A stretch of 64,000 bases of DNA from an uncultured Planctomycetota bacterium (GTDB taxonomy: Bacteria > Planctomycetota > Planctomycetia > Gemmatales > Gemmataceae). Under the pieces are notes generated by a model. The model was given only the letters and a program-made list of their open reading frames with translations, was not told the DNA's origin and did not search any database. Position 1 is the stretch's first letter, and every line of letters starts with the position of its first letter. The translations under genes and the position numbers were made by a program. Below, one piece after another: positions 5,632 to 18,502 of the stretch. The stretch is taken from positions 9,920-73,919 of the forward strand of contig CAWAMR010000018.1 of NCBI GenBank assembly GCA_963783095.1. The letters run 5' to 3'.

Positions 5632-6544
5632 ATGGATCCATTTGCAGCGCTGGTTCCTCCCCTCTTGACGGCTGACCTTCCAGGCATCGGCGGACAAATC
5701 AAGGCCCAGCCCGAAGATTTCGAGGTCGAGGAGATACCGGCTTACGAGCCGGGCGGCAGCGGCGATCATCTCTTTTTGTGGATCGAAAAGCGCGATATGG
5801 GGCGGAATTCTTTAGCCGGCAGATCGTGCGCGACTGGGTATCGCGCCCGGCGACGTGGGCATGGCGGGGTTGAAAGATCGTCATGCCATCACCCGGCAAT
5901 ATGTTTCCGTGCCGGCATCTGCGGAAGAGAAACTTTCGCAATTGGAAGGCGATGGGATTCGCCTTCTTCGACATGCCCGACACAACAATAAACTTCGACC
6001 CGGCCATTTACGCGGCAATCTTTTCCGCATCTTGATCCGAGACGTCGATCCAGCGCTGGCTCCGAATCTGGAAGCAATCCTTTCTCGCATCGAACAATTC
6101 GGGCTTCCCAATTTTTATGGCGACCAGCGTTTCGGCAAGGACGGTGAAACCGCCCACCTGGGAATGGCCCTTCTCAAGGGCGAGGGGAAGCCGATCCGAG
6201 CGCCCTTTCTGCGAAAACTCTCATTGTCGGCGGCGCAATCTCTGTTGTTCAATGCCTATCTCGCACAGCGCATGAAAGATGGTTTGATGCGAACGGTGTT
6301 GCCGGGAGATGTAATGGCCAAATGGCCGGCAGGAGGGATGTTCACTGCTGAGGATGTCGAAGTGGAGCAGGTGCGCGTCGATGTGCGTGAAACCGTCCCT
6401 GCGGGACCGATGTTTGGTCGAAAGACATTCCCATCAAAAGGAGTTGCCGCCGAGCGAGAAGCGAAAATTCTCGAAGACGCAGGGTTGACGAAGCGATCGT
6501 TTCGACGGCTTTGGAAAACTGCTGATGGGAACCCGACGACATAA
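5632..6544 (+). CDS. truD: tRNA pseudouridine(13) synthase TruD; single apparent +1 frameshift near 5825-5830
   Basis: [31 protein letters not shown] in ORF 5632, then [28 protein letters not shown] in ORF 5855 in another frame. Together these match the conserved TruD N-terminus including the catalytic-Asp region GLKDRHA. Confidence 0.8.
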
Positions 6545-6778
6545 TTTCGTCTATGTGGGCGAAGTCCAGACGGCATGGGAAGCGGAAGGTGTCAGATTAT
6601 CGTTTAGTTTGCCTGCGGGCAGTTATGCGACGGTGTTGTTGTGGGAAATCACTCGCGGAGCGATGCCGGAGATCGGGGAAGGGTGATACGACCTGGCGGA
6701 ATGATTGGGCCTATCGCAACTATCGCAACAACAATTGCGTCGATCAGTGCTTCTTGTCACAATAACTATATATCGGGA

Positions 6779-7078
6779 ATGATTGAGCTGAAACGATCGC
6801 AGTCGCGGCCTTTGGATGATCTCTTGGAGAAACTTATGGCAAGCGTCCCGCTAAGAACGGAATCGGAATTGGTCCGGCAATCGGAGGCGACACAACCTAA
6901 GTCGCTGAAACGAGTCAATGGAGAAGAGCGAACCAGTGCGGTTGATTCCCTGCTTGAATCGGAAACAAACGATCGGGCAGTTTCATTTGAAGAATTTCTA
7001 AGTTGCGAATTCACCGATGCGCTACTCGATCACTTCCATCGCGCCAAAAGAGCCGCTCTGCTTGAGAATGGAGAGTAG
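6779..7078 (+). CDS. Small acidic protein immediately upstream of the zeta-toxin gene; putative antitoxin
   Basis: ~100 aa starting MIELKRSQSRPLDDLLEKL; the 7 nt gap to the toxin gene fits a TA operon. No recognisable family. Confidence 0.4.
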   Translation: MIELKRSQSRPLDDLLEKLMASVPLRTESELVRQSEATQPKSLKRVNGEERTSAVDSLLESETNDRAVSFEEFLSCEFTDALLDHFHRAKRAALLENGE

Positions 7079-7084
7079 TTTGAC

Positions 7085-7732
7085 ATGCAGGTTCCTCAGC
7101 TCTGGATCGTTGCTGGTCCGAATGGCGCAGGCAAAACGACTTGTGTGCAAAAAGAGCCAATTTCGCAAATTCTGCCCAGTGTTACTTTTCTCAATCCCGA
7201 TAATTTGACCTTGGAAAAACTGGTTGCAAGGGGATATTCTGGATTCGCCGATGCTCCTGTCGATATCCAAACCAGCTTGTTTTTTGAATCTGCGGATGAG
7301 GTTTTCGCTCGACTAACGGACGCATTATCCCAAAATCAGTCAGTAGGCGTTGAAACGGTTCTCAGCAGCGACAAGTATCGTCCACTGGTTGAGTTGGTCG
7401 AGGAAAAAGCCGGATTTGTCGGACTCATCTATATCACCTTGACATCTCCTGCAATTGCTCAGCAGCGCGTAGCCCAACGGGTCCGACGTGGTGGACATGG
7501 GGTTCCCGATGACAAGATCGAGAAGCGATTCTTTCGGTCGATCGAGAATTTGACCTGGTTCGCAAGTCGTGCAACGGCGTTCTGGGTAATAGACAATTCG
7601 GATTCTGATCCGAACAATCCTCCTCAGCTGATTGCGTTCGGCAAACGTGGAGTTCTCCATTTTCTCGATCTTCAAGCAAATCCCGCAATACAGTCGGCAT
7701 TCGCGATGTTTCCTCGCCATGAGCCGAGTTGA
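7085..7732 (+). CDS. Zeta-toxin family P-loop kinase (PezT/zeta-like)
   Basis: Walker A IVAGPNGAGKTT and the zeta signature ...RVRRGGHGVPDDKIEKRF... Confidence 0.75.
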   Translation: MQVPQLWIVAGPNGAGKTTCVQKEPISQILPSVTFLNPDNLTLEKLVARGYSGFADAPVDIQTSLFFESADEVFARLTDALSQNQSVGVETVLSSDKYRPLVELVEEKAGFVGLIYITLTSPAIAQQRVAQRVRRGGHGVPDDKIEKRFFRSIENLTWFASRATAFWVIDNSDSDPNNPPQLIAFGKRGVLHFLDLQANPAIQSAFAMFPRHEPS

Positions 7733-8529
7733 GTCTGAACCACGAAGCCACCAATTTATGGGACACCTTTAGAAACTACTTTTGCGGCATCAAACGTCCA
7801 ATCACTCGCCGAGCCGTTGCCGGCGTTGCCTGGCGAGTATATTTGCATCAATCGCCCCTCGATTATGCACATTATAATAGATTGGTGCAAGAACAACCGA
7901 TTTTTGTGGACGTTCTCTTGGCAAGAAGGCTGTCGTACGAAATGTGGCATGGGCAATTGTCATCGCCTCCGCGGAATCACAAGATGAAATTCACCGAATC
8001 CGACATCCAAACTCGCTTTGAAAAAGCACGCGACGAAGCGATGGAGTTGCTTTCCAGGCTGGAGGTAGCCAACGGCCGTAAACCAGAAAAACTGAGAGGA
8101 TTAACTGGCTGGATTTATGAGCAGACCATCCGCAGTTGCTTGGAAGAAGAATTGGAAATCCTGGGGATTGCACCCGAGATCAGTGAGCAGGTGCGTTTGG
8201 GCAAGACAGGGCGCATCACCCTTGATCTGGTCGTTGGTCAAGTTGTAATCGAAATCAAATATGGCGGTTTCATTGGCTCAGCGGATCCAGAAAAATATCG
8301 AAAATACAGGGAACAGAGAACCGAATGTTACAACTTGCTACAAGTTTTTCAGCAGTCAGAGCCGCGACCGTTAGTAGGAAGCGATGTGGCCGTGAACAAA
8401 ACGCTACAACTTGCTACAGATTTTCAGGTTGCTCAAAAACCGGGAAATGCAAACGAACAATCTGGTGAACAAAATATTACAATTGGATCAGCGTTACAGA
8501 AACCAACCGTGTGGAAGTCGTTTTCCTGA
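7729..8529 (+). CDS. Hypothetical protein, third gene of the zeta operon (start uncertain)
   Basis: ORF starts with a TTG overlapping the zeta stop (TTGA), but an internal ATG at MKFTESDIQ is also possible. No family recognised. Contains a 23 nt internal direct repeat. Confidence 0.4.
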   Translation: MSLNHEATNLWDTFRNYFCGIKRPITRRAVAGVAWRVYLHQSPLDYAHYNRLVQEQPIFVDVLLARRLSYEMWHGQLSSPPRNHKMKFTESDIQTRFEKARDEAMELLSRLEVANGRKPEKLRGLTGWIYEQTIRSCLEEELEILGIAPEISEQVRLGKTGRITLDLVVGQVVIEIKYGGFIGSADPEKYRKYREQRTECYNLLQVFQQSEPRPLVGSDVAVNKTLQLATDFQVAQKPGNANEQSGEQNITIGSALQKPTVWKSFS

Positions 8530-8613
8530 AACCCGTCCACACCGTTGTCGGGTACAATATGTACCACTATTCACACTCAACCATTGCCCCCGCCGAACAT
8601 CCGGGAGGAATCC

Positions 8614-10362
8614 ATGCGTACTGTCCCTCGAATGATCCTCGCCGGGTTTATCGCGTTCACTCTCTTTTGCCCCATTCTCGCGTCCGCGGCAACTAAAGAT
8701 CCGCTTCGATTCATCCCCGACAAAACCGACCTCGTCCTCAAAATTGAGCGGCCTCGCCAATTCATCGAAGCCTTCTCGAAACTGGATGCCGTCAAGGACG
8801 CTCAACAACTCGATCCCGTCCGGAAGGTGCTCGATACGGCCCCCGTGCGGCGATTTTTCCAACTGGTCGCCTATTATGAGCGTGACCTCGGTCATTCCTG
8901 GCCCGAACTCATCGACAAGCTGGCCGGCGGCGGCATTGCTCTGGGAGTGAAATACGAGAACGGCCCCGCAAGCCCGGCTCTTATCGCAATTCAGGGTACC
9001 GATGCAGCCGTCATGAAGAAGTTTCTGGAAAGTGCGAGCAAGGTTCTTGAACAGGAGTTCAACCGCGAGGAGGTGAGGACCAAACTGTCCAGGATCCGGT
9101 ACAAGGAATTTGAAATCTGGACCTATGGCGATGGACTTAATCTGGCACTGGTCAACGATGTCATTCTCGCTTCCAATAGCCCCAAAACTCTACATACGAG
9201 CCTCGACCTGGAGTCCGGTATGCGTGCCGGCAAGCCCGCGCCTTCCATTCTCGACGTCAAGGGAATCGTCGATGCGAAGAAGCTGTTGCCAGCCGATCCG
9301 CTCATGTGGGCCTGGCTTAACCTGGAATATGTCAAGCAACGGCCCGAAGCGAAGACCGTCTTCACCACACCGCGGAACGATAACAATCTCACAATCCTGT
9401 TCGCAGGTTTGCTCGATGCCGCCCGCCGGTCTCCCTTCCTCGCGTTTGGATTCTACAAGACTTCCCAGGGCTTCACTGCAACCCTGCGAATGCCGGCCGG
9501 CCGGGAAGGCCGTGGAGCAGATGTCGTGTTGCATCTTCCCGAAGATAAAAACAGCACCTGCACGCTGCCCCTCCTGGAGCCGAGGGGAGTCATCTTTAGT
9601 CACAGTTTCTATCTCGATCTGGGAGCCATTTGGGAAAAACGCGACAAGATCTTCAATGAGAAGAACGCCAAGGAATTTGAAAAATCGGTCAAGGAGGCGT
9701 CGCGATTTCTGCCTGGCGCGTCGATCGACAAGTTGTTTATGCAAAGCGGCGTTTACCATCGCTTCCTTGTCGTTCAACCCGCAAAGCTGCCTTACACCAG
9801 GGAGCCTGGCGTTCGCCTCCCGGCCTTCGCCTTCGTGACCACCATGCGCGACGCGAGCTTTGCCAAGTCGATTGAACTTCTGATTCGAGGCGGAAGCGTG
9901 CTGGCGGGAACTCAGGTCAAGTTCAAGTCATTCGAGGAAAAGGTTGGAGATGTTTCGATACTTGGCTATCGCTTCCTGGAGGATGGCACTTTTGCCGCCG
10001 ATGAGCAGAATATCCGCTTTAACTTTGTGCCCTGCTTCGCCCACGTCAAGGATCAGATGATCTTCTGCACCAATCTCGAGTTGTTGAAGGAACTGATTCA
10101 ACTGGTTCAGAAGGAGGATCGGACCAAGTTGACGAAGAATATGCAGATGCGAGTATATGCCAAAGGACTTGCTGAACTGGCGAACGCCTCTCCGGAACAA
10201 CTGCTTACGCAGTCGATTCTGGCCCAGGCAATCCCGGAAGCGGAAGCGAAGAAGCAGGTAGAATCGCTCTTGAAGTATGCCCAGAACCTGGGAACGCTTC
10301 AGTTTGAAACCGACTGGTCCGCGCACGAGTTTCGTTTCAATATTTCTTGGAAATACAAATAG
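8614..10362 (+). CDS. Secreted hypothetical protein (~580 aa)
   Basis: GGGAGGA RBS upstream of the ATG. Signal peptide MRTVPRMILAGFIAFTLFCPILASAA. No recognisable catalytic motifs. Confidence 0.6.
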   Translation: MRTVPRMILAGFIAFTLFCPILASAATKDPLRFIPDKTDLVLKIERPRQFIEAFSKLDAVKDAQQLDPVRKVLDTAPVRRFFQLVAYYERDLGHSWPELIDKLAGGGIALGVKYENGPASPALIAIQGTDAAVMKKFLESASKVLEQEFNREEVRTKLSRIRYKEFEIWTYGDGLNLALVNDVILASNSPKTLHTSLDLESGMRAGKPAPSILDVKGIVDAKKLLPADPLMWAWLNLEYVKQRPEAKTVFTTPRNDNNLTILFAGLLDAARRSPFLAFGFYKTSQGFTATLRMPAGREGRGADVVLHLPEDKNSTCTLPLLEPRGVIFSHSFYLDLGAIWEKRDKIFNEKNAKEFEKSVKEASRFLPGASIDKLFMQSGVYHRFLVVQPAKLPYTREPGVRLPAFAFVTTMRDASFAKSIELLIRGGSVLAGTQVKFKSFEEKVGDVSILGYRFLEDGTFAADEQNIRFNFVPCFAHVKDQMIFCTNLELLKELIQLVQKEDRTKLTKNMQMRVYAKGLAELANASPEQLLTQSILAQAIPEAEAKKQVESLLKYAQNLGTLQFETDWSAHEFRFNISWKYK

Positions 10363-10464: not shown

Positions 10465-11837
10465 ATGTGGGAGCCTTACAAACCGAGCGCGAGAAATCCC
10501 TGGAACCTTCATAAGGTCGGCCATCTCTATCGCCGCGCAGCCTTCGGTGCCAACTGGAATGAACTTCAAGTCGGCCTTGAACTGGGACCGGACAAGCTCA
10601 TCGACAAGCTGGTCAAGGGTGGCACTGGCCTTGCTGATTTCGAGAAGGAGACGCTTCGCTGGGGGGCCTCGATCCGGAAGGTCAATAATGCACCCCAGTC
10701 ATCCGAGTGGTGGTTGTATCGGATGCTCTATACACCGCATCCGCTCAAAGAAAAGATGACACTATTCTGGCACAATCACTTTGCGACCAGTTTTGCCAAG
10801 GTGCTGAACACCTCATACATGATGGGTCAATATGACTTGATGTACCGGTCTGCCCTGGGCAATTTTGCCGAACTGCTCCAGGCGATCTCCAAAGATCCAG
10901 CGATGATGGTCTGGCTGGATACTGTGCAAAGCAAGAAAGGGATGCCCAACGAGAACTATGCCCGCGAGTTGATGGAACTGTTTAGTCTCGGCATCGGCAA
11001 TTACACCGAGGTGGATATACGCGAAGCTGCCCGTGCTTTCACCGGCTGGGAAATCAAGGAAGGCAAATTCTTCGACAACTCCAATCAGCATGACCGCACG
11101 GAAAAAACCGTACTCGGACGGAAAGGGAATTGGAAGGGCGATGACGTGGTTCGGATTTGCCTGGAACAGAAAGCGTGCCCGCGCTTCATCGTTCGGAAAC
11201 TCTACAAGTTCTTGATCAGCGAGAGTGAATCACCGGCTGCGGAAGTGATTGAACCGCTGGCGCTGCAATTCGCGAAGGACTATAATTTCGGCGCGGTCGT
11301 CGAAACCATGCTACGATCGAATTTGTTCTTTTCGGACTTCGCCTATCGGTCGCGCATCAAAGCGCCGGTCGATTACGTGCTGGGAATCGTGCGCGGACTT
11401 GAAGCCCGCCTCGGCGTGACCACCCTGGCCCGCGCTGGACCAGCTTGGACAGAACCTGTTCAATCCGCCTTCGGTCAAGGGCTGGGATGGTGGCGCGGAC
11501 CTGGCTCAACGGTCAAACTCTTTTGACCCGCCAGAACCTGGCATTGACCCTTTGCGAAACCCGGAACAAGGATGAAGGCGCAAAGGATTCATCGCCCCTG
11601 CCCGTGCTGCTGGCCCGGCATCATGGAAAGAAAGACAGCGAACTGGTCGATTTCTTCTTGGAGCTATTCCTCCAAGGTGCGGTGCCTCCCGAAACGAGAA
11701 AGCACCTCACCGATTATCTTGCTTCAACCTGGAAACAAACCTATCCGGTTTACTGGAGCAAAGAAGACATTGCCGATCATCGCATTCTGAGCATATGCCA
11801 TCTGGTGTTGACGTTACCTGAATTTCAACTGGACTGA
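10465..11837 (+). CDS. DUF1800 family protein; two apparent frameshifts (~11438 and ~11495)
   Basis: FWHNHFATS, VWLD and NENYARELMELF motifs. The three frames in succession read ...LEARLGVTTLARA / LDQLGQNLFNPPSVKGWDGG / TWLNGQTLLTRQNLAL...LVLTLPEFQLD, which reconstitutes a DUF1800 C-terminus. Confidence 0.8.
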
Positions 11838-11876: not shown

Positions 11877-13105
11877 ATGCAAAATCGCCGCGATTTTTTG
11901 AAGAATACCAGCCTGGTTGGGATGGGAACGGTCATCCCGACATTCCTGGCGAAGACAGCACTCGCAGCGCCCAGTGCTTCCGCAACAGGGGCCAAGGATA
12001 CCATCCTCCTCGTCGTTCAGTTGACGGGCGGCAACGATGGCCTCAACACCGTCATCCCCTACAAGGATGATCATTACTATTCCTATCGCCCGACGATTCG
12101 CATCCCGAAAGACCGAGTCCGCAAGATAAACGATTCGTTCGGACTGCACCCATCCCTGGAAGGGCTGGCGGGATTGCTCGAAGACAAGGCTTTGTGTGTG
12201 GTGCAGGGGGTAGGTTATCCCAATCCCAGCCAGTCGCACTTCCGCTCCATGGACATCTGGCAAGCGGCCAGTACCGCCGAAACCCTGAACGAGGGCTGGG
12301 TTGGCAAGGCGCTCAAATCTCTCAAATCCCCAGCCTTCCATATCGCCACCGCCAACGAAGCGGCACCTCTCGCATTGACTGGTGCGCCGATTCGCGTTCC
12401 GTCGATCACCTCGATCGAAGACTTTCAGCTAAAGATGACGGCAGCAACGGCGGCAGACAAAAAGGATCAGAAGTCGTTGATTCAGGGAGCGGTCAAGAAC
12501 AGCAGTCAATCCGGGCTTCTCGATTTCGTTGCCAAGACAGCGCTGAATACTTATGCCAGCAGCGAAAAGTTGCAGGAGATCGGCAAGAATTATCAGGCCA
12601 AGTCTCCTTACCCTCAAGGCAACTTGCTCGCCAACCGTCTCAAACTGTGCGCACAACTGATCGATTCGGGGATCGGTGCGCGAATCTTTTACGTTTCGAT
12701 CGATGGGTTCGACACTCATGCCAATCAAGGTGGTCCAACCGGTGCCCATGCGAACTTGCTCACGCAGGTATCCGGCGCGATCACCGCGTTTTACAAAGAC
12801 CTGGCGGCACGCGGCCACAAAGATCGGCTCCTGGTGATGACGTTCTCCGAGTTCGGTCGGCGCGCCAAAGAAAACGGCAGCAAGGGAACCGATCACGGCA
12901 GCGGCGCTCCGATGCTGCTCGTTGGGGGCAAAGTGAAGGCCGGGATCGTCGGCGACATCCCGACTTGACCAAATTAGAGATGGGCAATCTCAAGCATGCC
13001 ATCGATTTCCGTCAGGTATATGCAGCGGTCCTCGATCAGTGGCTTGGGGTCAACAGCAAGGAAGTCCTGGGAGGGGAATACCAACACGTAGGGATTCTTG
13101 CATAG
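11877..13105 (+). CDS. DUF1501 domain protein (Tat signal); apparent 1 nt deletion near 12950
   Basis: MQNRRDFLKNTSLVGMGT... with GGNDGLNTV, DGFDTHANQ and MTFSEFGRR. The C-terminus ...DHPDLTKLEMGNLKHAIDFRQVYAAVLDQWLG is recovered in the overlapping frame (ORF 12194..13105). Confidence 0.85.
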
Positions 13106-13292
13106 TACCCCCAACGGTTGCAACTGAGACTCATTGGACCCAAGTTCATTCCGGAACTTTGGGTCCAGCTTTTTTCCTCGTTCAGCATTTTTGAAGGTAC
13201 GAACGATGAACTTTGGTGGGAATGAATTGATGTAAGATAGGCCGATCCGTAGAATGCGAGAGAACGCCATCGACAAAGAAGGTATCTGAATT

Positions 13293-13378
13293 GGAGAGGT
13301 GGCAGAGCGGTTGAATGCGTCGGTCTCGAAAACCGATATACCGCAAGGATATCGGGGGTTCGAATCCCCCCCTCTCCG
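13293..13378 (+). tRNA. tRNA-Ser (anticodon CGA), class II with long variable arm; no encoded CCA
   Basis: GGAGAGG acceptor stem pairing with CCTCTCC; D-arm GCAGAGCGGTTGAATGC; anticodon loop CTCGAAA; long variable arm; T-arm GGGGGTTCGAATCCCCC. Confidence 0.85.
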
Positions 13379-13500
13379 TTTTCATTTCATGTCATTTGAT
13401 GTAAATTATTGCAAATTAAATACTTACATCTCAAGTTTTCTCACTTATGAACCCTCCTGGTGCACGCTTGGTGCACATACCGTGCACAGGAGTGTGTTTC

Positions 13501-14850
13501 ATGAGGTCTCGTCGAAGAGGCTCACCGAAGCGATTTCGCATTGGACGAGTCTCGGTTTACCCTCACCACGGAGCATGGTGGGTTTATTATCGCGATGCCG
13601 GCCAACCCGTGCGTCAAAAAGTCGCACTGGAGCACAAGGATGCCGAACAGATTGCCGCTCAAATCAATAGCCAATTGGCGTCCGGTGCCCCGCTACTTCT
13701 CTCATTCAGTCCCACGACGGTTGCCCACTTGCGAGAATCTTTTCTCGGGCATCATGAGTTCGTCCTGAAATCTTCTGTGGCGACCATCCAGCGCTATCGA
13801 GCCGCAACGCAACATCTAGAAGCCTTCACATTACGGGACACAAAATCACCGCGGGTCCACGAAGTTTGCGCCGAAAACTTCGTCCGTTATCTGCGTGAGA
13901 TTCAAGTCGCTCCCAATGGTCATCAGAATACCAAGCGGCGAAACCTTCGCGACAAGGGGATTCAGTTCATTCCAGAAACCTGCCGTGCGATGTACGGATT
14001 CGCGGCAAGGCGACGGCATCTTCCACCGTATATGGGAAACCCGTTCGCAACATTGCCTCTCGACCGGCTCAAGATCGAAGACTCCAAGCCAATCTTCCTG
14101 TTTAATGCCGAGAGCGAACTCGCTTTTCTTCGTCGAGCCGATGTCTGGGGATTCCCCATCCATTTCACTCTTGCCAAGACCGGCATGCGAAGCGGAGAAC
14201 TCTGCCATCTGCTGATCGAAGAAGTTGACCTCGAAGGTGGTTGGCTGCACGTTCGTAACAAGACCTCGCTTGGCTGGCGAATCAAGACTGGGAATGAAAG
14301 GGCCATCCCGCTTCTGGGGGAATTGGTTGCTCTTCTACGGGTCGTCATTGCTAATCGGAAGGCGGGTCCGGTCTTTTCGCCAGCGGTCGCCGTCATCTCC
14401 CGGGCGTCACACTCAATCGCGCCGCTTGATTTTTTCAAAAACACTTTTCCTGAAGGTCCCACTGCGCGCGCCTTGGTTCGCCAAGCAAATTTCGCCACGG
14501 ACTTTGATCCATTTTCCCGTGAAAAAAGCCTGAACAGAACGCCACACAAGATTCGCTGGACTAACACACCCACTGCGCGCCTTGGTTCGCCAAGCAAATT
14601 TCGCCACGGACTTTTGCCGATTTTGCCCACGAAAACCAGTGAACATACCGCCACACGACATTCGCTGGACCAACACACCCGGCACACTTATCAACGATCT
14701 TGTACAGGATGCTCTATTTACTCCGCTTTCGCGCCACACTGGGCCGCACCGGATCCAGGACTCGGCTCACCTTGTTTTTCTGAAGGGTCTTTACCAGATG
14801 CGCACCAGCCGCTCTTGAGTTCCAGTTCCCGTTCCCGTTCCTCCGCATAG
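13501..14850 (+). pseudogene. Phage-type tyrosine integrase, C-terminally truncated/degenerate
   Basis: N-terminal arm-type region (VYPHHGAWWVYYRD) and the catalytic-Arg box (TLAKTGMRSGELCHL) are present. The HxxR...Y box II is missing, and the sequence after ~14385 is non-protein-like and repetitive. Confidence 0.65.
14458..14690. repeat. Two tandem degenerate ~115 bp repeats inside the integrase 3' remnant
   Basis: cccactgcgcgc(gc)cttggttcgccaagcaaatttcgccacggactt ... cgccacac.attcgctgga..aacacaccc occurs twice consecutively. Confidence 0.6.
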
Positions 14851-15780
14851 AGCGGCATCATCGTGTAGAACTGTACGACGCGTCCATCGTTGAGCGTCGC
14901 CGTCGGAATATCGGACATTTCTAGAAACAAGCCCATGCAACTGAGTTGGGTATTGGCTGCGAACGGCTGCGGCGGCTCGTCATTGGCAATGATCGTGACC
15001 GGCGCTCCCAGCCAGGTCTTGTTCTGGTGCGGATACAGGGCGATTCGACGCATCCATTCAATCGGCCAAAACAATTCGGGGTTGCCCAGCGATGCTTCAT
15101 CCAGCGGCCATTTCTTCCCGGGCGGAAGCTGCAGCACCAGTTCGGCGAACTGAAACTCTTCTTTGCCTTTCGGGACGGTCATGGGCTTGTCGCACATCCC
15201 GGTCGTGAAAAGCGTGTTGTAGGCCCTCTTGCGCGTGGAGGGCACGAAGTGAATGGCAATATCCGGATCCGTTGGCACGATGGATCGTAGTGCCAGCGTC
15301 TGGGCGCGCCGACGCGCCAGAAACATGTTCGAGAATTGCCTCACGCGAACGAACGAGCGGCTTGTCCGACGCCCACCAGGGTTCGGTATAACCGGAAGGC
15401 AGAACAGCACCCTTGGAAGCCAAATACTTGTAAATCTCTGGATGGCCAAGCGCGTTCGATAAAGCATTCATCCCTGCCCATTCGGCATTCACATCGGCAC
15501 CGTGCTCAACTAACAGCTTGACAATATCAACAAAACCGTGACTCGCAGCAGTTGAAAGAGCAAAATTACGGACGGCACCATCTACTGTGCAATTGGAGTC
15601 TGCGCCTTGTTCCAGCAGCCACCGGACGACAACTACATGACCTCCAAGTGAAGCGCTGTAAATCGGAGTTTCTGGACTCTCTGAGGGATTTTGAGGTCGG
15701 GGTGCGTTTACACTCAATCCCATGCTCACCAGCCTTTGAACAGTGGCTAGCATCCCTTTTTCGCCGCCATGTGAAGCCAA
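14718..15780 (-). CDS. Ankyrin-repeat + SUFU (suppressor-of-fused)-domain protein; putative immunity protein; apparent frameshift near 15310-15320
   Basis: ORF 15097..15780 carries ANK repeats (GADSNCTVDGAVRNFALSTAASHGFVDIVKLLVEHGADVN). ORF 14718..15467, in another frame, carries a bacterial SUFU-like core (HFVPSTRKRAYNTLFTTGMCDKPM...YPHQNKTWLG...NDEPPQPFAANTQL...MPLYAEERERELEL). The junction falls in a GC-rich run. Confidence 0.65.
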
Positions 15781-15907
15781 GTTTGATTCCCCACATCACG
15801 ATGTAGCAAATCGGGGTGCATGCTTAGTAGCCGCTGAATTTCGTCCGCGTCATCGCGATTCATTGCCCCACTTATTGTGTTTAGCAAGACATCTGTTTCA
15901 TCTAACG

Positions 15908-16867
15908 TCATGGTGATTTGAACTCTCCTTTTGCGAATCGGTCACCAAGATCCTTGAGCTTATTTATGATGTCTATCTTGTTTTTGGGAGTAGCCTTTAA
16001 TTCCTTGTAAACAGCTAACGCGTATTTCTTGGTATGGCTCCAATTCGGTGCCCACATAAGATTCTCAGGCCCATTTATTGGATCGATTTTGACATCCTTC
16101 AGGATTTGCTGGCTTTCTTGTACCGGGGTCGCCGACCCATCCGTTACACGATCGTATGTCGCCGACGGGCCTTTCCGCATGACGATATGGTGAGCGTGAA
16201 TCGTGACGTCATGATTGGTTTTTTTGGCATTGTTCAGGTAGCCTTGAATCGCAAGATCCGGAGTCGGCACGGATTGGCCTTGAAAGTATTGATGGCCCAG
16301 TGCGTCGCCGCCGTTATCTTTTTCGTATTTTTGCAGGAGCGCTTTGAATTTCGCCTCATCGGGGTCCTTGGGCTTCAGCAGGCCCTCAAGGAGTTCAACG
16401 AGATTGATTCCTTCTTTGGCAAGCTTCGGGTTTGCCGCCTCGAATTTCTGGTCGATGACGTAGCCTCGAACATCCTTGAGGCGTTCGTGCGGCTTTTGCA
16501 TCCCTTCAATGAGCTTGGCAAGTTGAAGGTGAATCGTGCTTTCCAGTTCCTTGAGCAGTTTCGCGCGGTTTTCCTGCTTCTGCTTTTTCTGCTCCGGCGT
16601 CCGTCCGCCCGGCTGGCTCCCCGCGACCTTGGCGAGCTTGTCGTAGGCATCCTTGATTGTTTTCTTGGCCGCGTCGAGTGATTTTCCTGTCAGTCGCGCG
16701 TTGACGCTCGCGACATAGATTTCAATTTCATCCTTGTCGTTGACCTCCACCCATAGTTCGTGTGTCCCTTCATATTCAAACGTCCGTGTTTTGCCCAGCC
16801 GGTTCGGGCGGTCGTTAAACAGTTTCCCAAGGCGGCCAAGGGTCGCCCCTACGATCTTGTTGATCAA
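15908..16867 (-). CDS. Toxin-like protein with C-terminal AHH-family (HNH/EndoVII-fold) nuclease domain; TTG start
   Basis: C-terminal ...TIHAHHIVMRKGP...ENLMWAPNWSHTKKYALAVYKEL matches the AHH motif pattern (AHH..P ... N..W.P..H...Y..V). Helical N-terminal region. Sits directly upstream of the ANK-SUFU gene on the same strand. Confidence 0.65.
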   Translation of the reverse strand: MINKIVGATLGRLGKLFNDRPNRLGKTRTFEYEGTHELWVEVNDKDEIEIYVASVNARLTGKSLDAAKKTIKDAYDKLAKVAGSQPGGRTPEQKKQKQENRAKLLKELESTIHLQLAKLIEGMQKPHERLKDVRGYVIDQKFEAANPKLAKEGINLVELLEGLLKPKDPDEAKFKALLQKYEKDNGGDALGHQYFQGQSVPTPDLAIQGYLNNAKKTNHDVTIHAHHIVMRKGPSATYDRVTDGSATPVQESQQILKDVKIDPINGPENLMWAPNWSHTKKYALAVYKELKATPKNKIDIINKLKDLGDRFAKGEFKSP

Positions 16868-16939
16868 GTCTTCGACAGGCTTTTTGACTTTGCTAAGAAG
16901 GTAGTTGTAACTCGATCATCCACTCAAGAACTCATCGCT

Positions 16940-16975
16940 GGTGCACAAGTGGTGCACAAGTGGTGCACAAGAAAG
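16940..16975. repeat. Three tandem copies of GTGGTGCACAA near the island's right end; putative recombinase-binding iterons
   Basis: gctggtgcacaagtggtgcacaagtggtgcacaag. The related ctggtgcacgcttggtgcacataccgtgcacagg occurs at 13448-13490 next to the integrase start. Confidence 0.55.
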
Positions 16976-17110
16976 TCAAGCTGGGGGCAAGGTTCTGATA
17001 GTGGAGGTTCGTGGAAGAATGATGAAAAAGGTGTTTTTTCCGAGGTTTTGTGCATCAGATGGGGTTCGCGAGTGAGAAAACAAGGCATGACGGAATAATT
17101 TCTCGGAGAG

Positions 17111-17125
17111 TCCCCCCTCTCCGTT
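17111..17125. repeat. Putative attR: direct repeat of the tRNA-Ser 3' end
   Basis: tcccccctctccgtt vs tRNA 3' atccccccctctccgtt (13362-13380). Confidence 0.5.
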
Positions 17126-17246
17126 GGTTTGTTGGCCTCTGTTTATTGTTGTTTTTCCGCGATGCAATAAAGAAAGCGTTCGCCGCGGAGGAACAGGTCC
17201 TGGCCGGCGAGCGCCGCCGAGGCGCTGAAGGAGTCGTCGAGGCGGT

Positions 17247-18502
17247 TTACGGCACAGCATTTTGACGTGTCGGCTCGCCGTGGCTGATGACCTGGGTGAC
17301 GCCGTCGAGGCTGGTGACGTAGATTCGGCCGGCGGCGCCGACCGGCGACGCATAGACGTTCCTGATGGCGTCCAAGCGCACGGGATCGCCCAGGTCTTTC
17401 CCCGTCTTGGCATCGATGCGCACGAGGACGCCCTGGTAGTGCTGCAGGTTATAAATCGTGCCGTCGTAAAGCAGCGGCGATGGAACGTAGGGCGTTCCCC
17501 GGTGGCGAGACCAGACGACCTGGTTGGTCCCCGTGATGTCGCCTTTGGCGCCGTCGAGTTGGATTGCCAGCATGGCGCGCGTGTCGTAGCTGCTGCCGGC
17601 GTAGACGAACCCGTTCGCCGCCACCGGCGACGCCACGATGTTGGACGACAGCCCACCGCACTCCCAGACGATCGCGCCGTTGGCCAAGTCGTAGGCGCGC
17701 ATGCGTTTCGTGCCCGGGACGATGACCTGGGCCTTGCCGTTGTGCTCGACCACAATCGGCGTCGCCCACGAAGTGTCCTCGGCGCGAGCCACGCGCCAGC
17801 GTTCCTTGCCGGTGCGTTTGTCGAGGGCGACGACAAACGATTTCTCTTCGTGGTCCCAGTTGATGATGAGCGTGTCGCCGTGAAGGGCCGGGGAACTGCC
17901 TTCGCCGTGGCCGTGCTTGGAGTGCATCTCGCCGAGGTCTTTTTTCCAGAGCAGCTTACCGGCTACTGTCCAGGCAGTACAGGCCGTACGAGCCGAAAAA
18001 CGCGAAGACATGCTCGCCGTCGGTGACGGGCGATGCCGAGGCGAGGCTGCCGGTGACATGACCGGCTTCGTGCGGCGTCGCCTTGTTGCAGCGTTTGCTG
18101 CCAGAGAATCTTGCCGGTGCCCGGCTGACGGCCAGCACTGCGAATTCGTGGTTGCGGGTCAGTGTCAAGTTGTCGTGAGCACCTGGACGAACGAAGCGGG
18201 GCTTCACCGGATCGCCGTAAGGGATCGCCGTGGTCAGGTAGAGGCGGTCGCCCCAAACGATCGGCGTGGAATGCCCCTTGCCGGGCAGCGCCGTCTTCCA
18301 GCGGATGTTCTTGTTCTTCGTTCCATTCGATCGGCGGCTGGGCATTCGGTGCCACGCCGGTTGCTAGCGGTCCGCGCCATTGCGCCCAGGAGTCCGGCGC
18401 TTCGACCTTGCCGCGCTCGGCATTTACCGCTCCGGCCAGCAAGCAGGTTGTCGCCAGATTGCCAATAATTGACATCATGACGATGCCCCCTTGGTTTGCC
18501 AC
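17247..18502 (-). CDS. Secreted PQQ-like beta-propeller repeat protein (BamB-like fold); at least two apparent frameshifts
   Basis: Signal peptide plus WAQWRGP start (ORF 17963..18502); propeller blades in ORFs 17956..18345 and 17247..18059 (PIVWGDRLYL, FVYAGSSYD, GRIYVTSLDG). Confidence 0.7.

Follow-up and report, generated by a model that had tools for sequence, protein, structure and literature searches.

A Remnant of a tRNA-Ser(CGA) Island in a Planctomycete Genome and Its Predicted AHH Toxin and ANK-SUFU Immunity Genes

Here we describe a 64-kb stretch of DNA from an uncultured Planctomycetota bacterium (the window, to whose positions all coordinates refer) and, within it, an element of 3.75 kb at 13367-17125 that is the remnant of a genomic island at a tRNA-Ser gene. 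It is likely, in our judgment, that this remnant is immobilized and that its surviving cargo is a DNase toxin cassette of the AHH family together with the cognate immunity gene, whose product combines ankyrin (ANK) repeats with a SUFU domain. The anatomy of the element, the truncation of its integrase gene, the identities of the encoded domains, the conserved gene order, and the conserved architecture of the attachment (att) sites were all observed directly. The remnant is of interest as a clean natural example of tRNA-island decay in which a toxin-immunity operon that protects its own host has persisted, along with the sites of recombination, beyond the integrase and the other cargo.

In the history that we propose, a site-specific integrative island would have inserted at the 3' end of the tRNA-Ser(CGA) gene, and an internal deletion would have taken the last ~155 codons of the integrase gene (int) and, presumably, most of the cargo. 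Both recombination ends remain, each with the 14-nt core repeat and a triplet of GTGCAC arm-type sites, as does a bicistronic operon on the minus strand in which the AHH toxin gene precedes the ANK-SUFU gene. The ANK-SUFU protein would bind the nuclease and block it in the producer cell, and the operon was probably retained because its immunity gene guards against that same toxin. The deletion history, the nuclease activity, the neutralization by ANK-SUFU, and the selective reason for retention are the parts of this account that we infer.

Boundaries of the Element and Its Integration Site

The single tRNA gene that ARAGORN detects in the whole window is the intact integration target (Table 1). 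The initial annotation had described a direct repeat of the tRNA-Ser 3' end at the far side of the element, and this repeat is present as an exact 14-nt copy of CCCCCCTCTCCGTT at 17112-17125. The two copies are the only ones in 64 kb, even when one mismatch is allowed, against a chance expectation of 0.04. The inverted repeat around the right copy, GGAGAG-N7-CTCTCC, resembles a tRNA acceptor stem, and the GC content climbs from ~0.50 to ~0.66 over 17100-17200. Candidate arm-type sites lie toward both ends, with TGGTGCACA occurring four times in the window and always within the element, once proximal to int and three times in tandem at 16939-16969. Four gene-sized open reading frames (ORFs) lie between the repeat copies, namely the int-like ORF on the plus strand and the 319-aa, ankyrin, and SUFU ORFs, all on the minus strand. 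The start of int that is supported by homology falls 122 nt past the tRNA, in agreement with the earlier placement of an integrase just after it.

Table 1. Features of the tRNA-Ser(CGA) island remnant, in window positions.
Feature	Position	Strand	Remarks
tRNA-Ser(CGA), intact integration target	13292..13379	+	ARAGORN; Rfam tRNA 61.8 bits
attL core, left copy of the 14-nt direct repeat CCCCCCTCTCCGTT	13367..13380	+	the 13 nt at the tRNA 3' end and one further nt
int-proximal GTGCAC triplet, CTGGTGCACGCTTGGTGCACATACCGTGCACAGGA	13457..13491	+	11-nt spacing; candidate arm-type or operator sites, just 5' of the int start
5' two-thirds of a tyrosine integrase gene, aa 1-292 of ~447	13501..14376	+	69% identity to P0006, no frameshift
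Two tandem ~110-nt copies, 83% identical	14458..14568 and 14569..14680	+	between truncated int and the immunity gene 3' end
Ankyrin-repeat + SUFU gene, predicted immunity protein of ~397 aa	14718..15911	-	two 1-nt frameshifts, ~15300-15310 and ~15750-15760
319-aa predicted toxin gene	15908..16867	-	orphan, mostly helical N-terminal ~210 aa; C-terminal AHH domain (HNH/EndoVII-type) at aa ~211-319, nt 15911-16237
attR-proximal triplet of TGGTGCACAAG	16938..16972	+	candidate arm-type sites
Further GTGCA-type site, TTTTGTGCATCAG	17046..17058	+	~60 nt before the core; position kept in related attR loci (read from aligned sequences)
attR, inverted repeat/hairpin CGGAGAG-TCCCCC-CTCTCCG enclosing the right 14-nt repeat copy	17104..17125	+	

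A 20-nt inverted repeat with 85% complementarity (13435-13454 and 17062-17081) also flanks both att cores, and in a circular attP the core would be flanked by its arms at distances of ~54 nt and ~30 nt. The repeat could be a site for an accessory protein, and the islands L002 and L003, introduced below, do not share it.

A Truncated Integrase

The integrase belongs to a family with more than 580 homologues from Gemmataceae, Fimbriiglobus, and other Planctomycetota, which are typically ~445 aa long and 62-70% identical to it. When the full-length member P0006 was compared with the window by tblastn, its residues 1-292 matched in one frame and free of gaps, and residues 293-447 had no counterpart anywhere in the window. 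The Pfam Phage_integrase profile is likewise matched at positions 31-88 of 172 only (32 bits). Missing from the window is the ...CPKSWRHSFATLLQDANVDP...LGH...Y... segment of the homologues (KSWRHSFAT), which we take to hold the second arginine, the His/Trp, and the tyrosine nucleophile of tyrosine recombinases, and the window integrase therefore does not carry the complete catalytic set (R, K, H, R, H/W, Y). With these residues lost, the element should be unable to excise with its own enzyme. The initial annotation had stated that the catalytic C-terminal half was gone; the loss of the catalytic C-terminus stands, but it amounts to 155 of ~447 aa, or about 35%, rather than to a half.

The int ORF stays open to 14850 through unrelated sequence, and the deposited protein (P0002) has the normal family length of 449 aa, its last 157 residues being unrelated read-through that is partly antisense to the SUFU gene. 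This should serve as a warning for the use of public annotation, as an "integrase" of normal length can look complete and yet be devoid of its catalytic C-terminus. A PH(K/D)IRWTNTP peptide encoded in the 110-nt repeats was considered as the HxxR box of the integrase and ruled out, given that the homologues carry ...CPKSWRHSFATLL... at that point and that tblastn similarity ends at aa 292. A prophage origin was rejected because the integrase had no match in IMG/VR. In NCBIfam, only sub-threshold Xer and generic ankyrin matches were obtained.

A Family of Islands at tRNA-Ser(CGA)

Full-length relatives of this integrase occupy the same kind of site elsewhere. In the two cases examined on long contigs (L002 and L003), the integrase gene begins 110-120 nt after a tRNA-Ser(CGA) gene and in the same orientation, within islands of more than 10 kb whose cargo is varied and often defense-like. 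The GTGCAC triplet with its 11-nt spacing is found directly 5' of the int start codon in L001-L004, as in the window. The right end is conserved as well. A metagenome scan for GGTGCACAAGTGGTGCAC returned 67 loci, and 10 of them have GGAGAGTCCCnnnCCTCTCCG preceded, at a distance of 166-193 nt, by two or three GTGCAC sites; these 10 contigs correspond to about eight distinct elements, L115, L120, and L149 being near-identical. The window attR has an offset of 177, with CGGAGAGTCCCCCCTCTCCG at 17104-17123, and matches the family spacing. The shared layout consists of GTGCAC repeats, ~140 nt, and then GGAGAGTCCC..CTCTCCG, with a TTGTGCA(T/C)CAG site ~60 nt before the core that is common to the window and the related attR loci.

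As judged from these alignments, the right end of the element is a typical attR of this family, which is frequent in Gemmataceae-like Planctomycetota and targets the 3' end of tRNA-Ser(CGA). The association of the integrase family with this tRNA, together with the attR layout kept in 10 contigs, identifies the window element as a shrunken member of the island family and upholds the original proposal of an element integrated at tRNA-Ser. The family, with its GTGCAC arm repeats and acceptor-stem-like attR hairpin, is conventional in kind and apparently undescribed; a limited literature search turned up no description of either feature. Its att/arm signature could be used for delimiting islands in the poorly studied Planctomycetota.

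Further observations concern the sibling loci. On the reverse strand of L143 (~896-1580), another integrase of the family starts within ~180 nt after an attR-type end (GTGCAC repeats, then GGAGAGTCCCGCCCTCTCCG), which suggests the tandem accretion of islands at one tRNA-Ser site. Defense-like genes surround the integrases of L003 (95-9025 and 11241-20756) and L002 (11966-21341), and the cargo downstream of int in the sibling islands includes PIN-TPR-GreABC, HTH plus peptidase M78, HMUDK helicase/MazG, and a NERD-protein kinase. Upstream of the tRNA in L003 there are four DNA-methylase genes and a second integrase, possibly those of another element.

The Predicted AHH Toxin

Residues 211-296 of the 319-aa protein match Pfam AHH (PF14412), and the score of 23.0 bits (E = 8e-5) exceeds the cut-off of 22.3. 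A word-indexed search with the toxin returned only the toxin itself, and an exhaustive HMMER scan of 1.8 billion representative proteins gave 92 matches. Apart from the query fragment and one repeat-rich protein, these align only to residues ~220-317, with 36-62% identity (most 40-50%), and the matching region is nearly always C-terminal, in proteins of 67-1857 aa. When 90 distant homologues and the window protein were scanned with Pfam, AHH was found in 46 of the 91 sequences (best E = 4e-10), PT-HINT in 15, and RHS in two. The sequences of homologues show a classic HINT domain ending in ...VWAHN, a linker, and then HAHHIV...NLxWAPNxxH. In the alignment of the domain, the first and last histidines of H-A-H-H (H20 and H23) are invariant and a further nine positions (A21, H22, E64, N65, W68, A69, P70, N71, and H74) are conserved at 90% or more.

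All of the conserved residues are kept in the window protein (TIHAHHIVMRKG ... ENLMWAPNWSHTKKYA; H-A-H-H, E-N-L-x-W-A-P-N, H, and Y), and their pattern fits the Tox-AHH signature listed in PMC3482391, an [AG]HH motif with N, H, and Y residues further on. The AHH nuclease domain that had been assigned to the end of this protein is thus supported, both by a Pfam score above the cut-off and by the AHH-positive sequences among those scanned. By homology, the 319-aa protein is predicted to be a metal-dependent DNase toxin, whose C-terminal ~100 aa would make up a nuclease domain of the His-Me-finger (beta-beta-alpha-metal) fold.

The N-terminal ~210 aa of the protein are predicted, with low to medium confidence, to form a small sheet and long helices. 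When this region was compared with the 92 homologues, the only similarity was a weak one of 47 aa to P0189 (E = 0.001 in the 92-sequence database), which is not significant globally and was set aside. A longer toxin ORF has no room, as its path is closed by an in-frame stop at 16916-16918 and, from 16938 on, by the arm-type sites, and on this both available assemblies agree. The N-terminal trafficking domain, repeats (RHS/FilH), or PT-HINT of a complete polymorphic toxin are missing from the protein. The term "polymorphic-toxin-style module" used in the initial annotation is therefore apt for the cassette but not for a complete exported toxin, for which the delivery domain was not found. Given the lack of a signal peptide, PT-HINT, or RHS, the toxin and its neighbor would best be read as a stand-alone, or orphan, unit of toxin cassette and immunity gene such as occurs near polymorphic toxin loci.

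The Predicted ANK-SUFU Immunity Protein

Directly downstream, and overlapping the toxin stop codon by ATGA at 15908-15911, is the start of the ANK-SUFU gene. As sequenced, this gene is spread over three frames, with an N-terminal piece (15747-15911) in one and the ANK and SUFU pieces in the two others. Profile searches, which had been proposed as a check, gave Ank_2 at 75.4 bits on the ankyrin ORF (15097-15780) and SUFU at 100.4 bits on the SUFU ORF (14718-15467). The three pieces joined make a protein of 397 aa, ~90% of whose length aligns with more than 100 clusters of ANK+SUFU proteins of ~380-395 aa from Planctomycetota, and we therefore treat them as one gene with two 1-nt frameshifts. 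The frameshift nearer the start codon falls in a run of A5G3 and the other in a GC-rich palindrome. In the initial annotation an ANK-SUFU protein with the architecture of immunity proteins had been placed on the same strand as the toxin; its domains and position are as described, whereas its extent is 14718-15911 instead of 14718-15780 and it comprises three overlapping ORFs as sequenced.

The order of a toxin gene followed by an ANK(-SUFU) gene recurs in four other contexts (L090, L091-93, L094, and L095). In L090 (GCA_040772845.1), an ANK-SUFU homologue lies 11 nt downstream of an 813-aa PT-HINT protein whose end reads ...THAHHILPQ...NLEWAPNWGH, and in L091-93 the protein upstream of the homologue is a PT-HINT protein of 2400-2700 aa that ends in ...VHAHHIVMRN. 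Two AHH proteins that stand alone (P0124 and P0138) are each directly followed by an ankyrin gene. This recurrence of one order across contexts points to the ankyrin part as the constant partner of this AHH clade, and SUFU may be a second immunity domain. Judged by gene order and domain content, the ANK-SUFU protein is accordingly a predicted immunity protein, and it would bind and neutralize the toxin in the producer cell.

Some related loci differ in their surroundings. The closest full-length homologue, with 51% identity, is found in L086-L089 (at 3167-4333 in L086) without a toxin gene upstream; the ~960 nt preceding it contain no convincing ORF, a PIN-domain pair adjoins, and it is an apparent orphan immunity gene. 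In the giant PT-HINT/AHH loci L091-L093, the ANK-SUFU gene is followed at 6104-9009 by genes for an 871-aa protein without a Pfam match and a DUF7660 protein, which may be a further toxin-immunity pair.

Probable Assembly Noise and Real Decay

Short insertions and deletions appear to be common in the window, at roughly one per 1-2 kb and often in short homopolymers or GC-rich palindromes. To the left of the element, the DUF1800 gene (10465-11837) is split between two frames and a missing C cuts the final ~45 codons from the DUF1501 gene (11877-13105), and the orthologues of both are intact in L005. A gene for a PQQ-like beta-propeller protein at 17247-18502 is also split over two or more frames. 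Apparent pseudogenes in the window are consequently not to be trusted.

A second assembly of the same organism (L085; ENA ERZ25039528) shares 98.06% identity with the window across 13.8 kb. The two differ at 87 indel positions and by 182 substitutions, and many of these differences fall in GCGC/CCGG-like contexts. The ANK-SUFU gene of L085 breaks frame at other positions than that of the window, and its N-terminal, ANK, and SUFU parts have the same net frame. Since conserved neighboring genes are frameshifted too and the breaks in L085 differ, the small ANK-SUFU frameshifts are most probably errors of long-read assembly, and the immunity gene, as reconstructed rather than as read, is probably intact. 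Between the window and L085 there is no difference in the truncation of int, in either att copy, in the arm sites, or in the tandem repeats of 110 nt.

Weighing the Alternatives

A number of results weigh against the reading of an immobilized remnant with a toxin cassette and its immunity gene. The Pfam AHH score is barely over its threshold, fold searches with AlphaFold models recovered no HNH nuclease, and no solved structure homologous by sequence to the toxin was found. The N-terminal ~210 aa have no homologue among the 1.8 billion representative proteins, and no export signal is evident, Pfam finding AHH alone and no trafficking domain of any kind in the toxin. The ANK-SUFU gene is frameshifted twice in the window and L085 is also noisy there. 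Some homologues of ANK-SUFU lack a toxin gene in their vicinity, although this is as expected of orphan immunity genes. Finally, an empty attB was not found. A contig scan of genomes with the left-flank DUF1501 protein led to the orthologous loci L005-L008, and in the nearest genomes (DUF1501 67-78% identical) synteny is lost exactly at the DUF1501 stop, with no tRNA there. An exact search of the metagenome collection with a 25-mer spanning the junction of attR and flank gave no match either. In an excised form, the junction (attP circle/attB) would read GGTTCGAATCCCCCCCTCTCCG directly followed by TTGGTTTGTTGGCC.

The alternative to be taken most seriously, although we consider it unlikely, is an intracellular addiction or abortive-infection module that resembles a toxin-antitoxin system. 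Here the nuclease would never be exported, and the loss or inactivation of ANK-SUFU, for example upon phage attack or island loss, would free it to degrade the DNA of its own cell, thereby stabilizing the remnant or protecting the population. The missing export and trafficking domains favor such a module, as does the absence of HINT- or RHS-like sequence from the rest of the window. The defense-type cargo of the sibling tRNA-Ser(CGA) islands (DNA methylases, NERD-kinase, PIN-TPR-GreABC, HTH plus peptidase M78) is in line with it too, and the pair has outlasted the deletion of nearly everything else. However, the homologous domains end exported polymorphic toxins of the PT-HINT and RHS types, toxin before immunity is the gene order of polymorphic toxins, and no protease or other trigger gene is present. 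PADLOC gave no match for the toxin and only a generic ankyrin match (PDC-M72A) for the ankyrin/SUFU protein, and a known anti-phage defense system was rejected on this basis.

A more speculative and somewhat less probable idea is that the N-terminal ~210 aa form a novel module, complete in itself, that serves in delivery, regulation, or release. The HINT-less AHH protein would then be a complete toxin of new architecture, and the pair an addiction or defense module that keeps a non-autonomous mini-island in place, possibly one that can be mobilized in trans via its intact att and arm sites.

Mobility in trans can also be considered by itself. The remnant would in that case be a still-mobile, non-autonomous mini-island whose intact att and arm sites are recognized by another, full-length member of the integrase family with its gene at a different place in the genome. 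Both ends keep the family architecture, and the tandem stacking at one tRNA in L143 implies that sibling integrases can co-occur. Against this, the 64-kb window holds no second integrase of the family, neither the genome scan nor the metagenome 25-mer search revealed an excised or empty form, and the window and L085 both represent the occupied state. We regard this as improbable, and immobilization remains our preferred reading of the element.

Least probable is a dead relic in which both genes are decaying pseudogenes left by the deletion, as might be supposed from the truncated integrase, the immunity gene split over three frames, and the TTG start of the toxin gene, which has no obvious upstream signals and only three weak promoter-like matches in the region. 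Against this, the frameshifts fit the assembly noise seen in DUF1800, DUF1501, and the comparison with L085, and the toxin ORF runs uninterrupted through 319 codons and keeps all of the conserved AHH residues.

Relation to Known Systems

Both components of the remnant, the island in a tRNA gene (tDNA) and the Tox-AHH with Imm-ank/Imm-SuFu, are known in kind. SuFu was proposed as an immunity protein by Zhang, Iyer & Aravind (2011; PMC3113570), and Tox-AHH with Imm-ank and Imm-SuFu, including ankyrin-SuFu fusions and with planctomycetes among the carriers, was tabulated by Zhang et al. (2012; PMC3482391). The view that polymorphic toxins in Planctomycetota are little characterized, expressed in the initial annotation, is thus fair with regard to experiments but not with regard to the catalogue, and the toxin-immunity pair would be one more predicted instance of a class catalogued in 2012. 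It resembles that class in its C-terminal AHH signature, in having homologues fused to PT-HINT and RHS, in the ankyrin repeats and SUFU domain encoded directly downstream, and in its planctomycete host. Unlike the catalogued systems, the window protein is devoid of trafficking, repeat, and HINT regions and carries an N-terminus without detectable homologues, and the pair sits on a tRNA island remnant instead of beside a secretion-system or RHS locus.

Orphan cassettes of contact-dependent inhibition (CDI) and Rhs systems (displaced CdiA-CT/CdiI and Rhs-CT/RhsI pairs) classically follow the full-length gene and retain part of the conserved core for recombination. The window pair is comparable in that a C-terminal toxin module and its cognate immunity gene occur without a large delivery protein. 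It differs in having no parent gene within 64 kb and no fragment of HINT or RHS at the toxin N-terminus.

The island itself follows the pattern of tDNA-integrated genomic islands described under the Islander concept (PMC4383910), with an integrase gene adjoining the tRNA, a regenerated tRNA 3' end, and a displaced 14-nt fragment marking the far end. It departs from this pattern in its small size and its catalytically dead integrase, while its sibling islands exceed 10 kb. What is new is the tRNA-Ser(CGA) island family with its att/arm signature and the HINT-less AHH protein with an orphan N-terminus.

Tandem Repeats between Truncated int and the Immunity Gene

The two ~110-nt copies between truncated int and the immunity gene had no further copy in the window or in 84 fetched loci and no match in Rfam. 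They gave no convincing fold (z = +1.3, +0.1, and +1.4), with one strand of copy 2 at -2.0. Their first ~45 nt are nearly identical and include a CTTGG-TTCG-CCAAG hairpin, and the remainder is ~70% identical.

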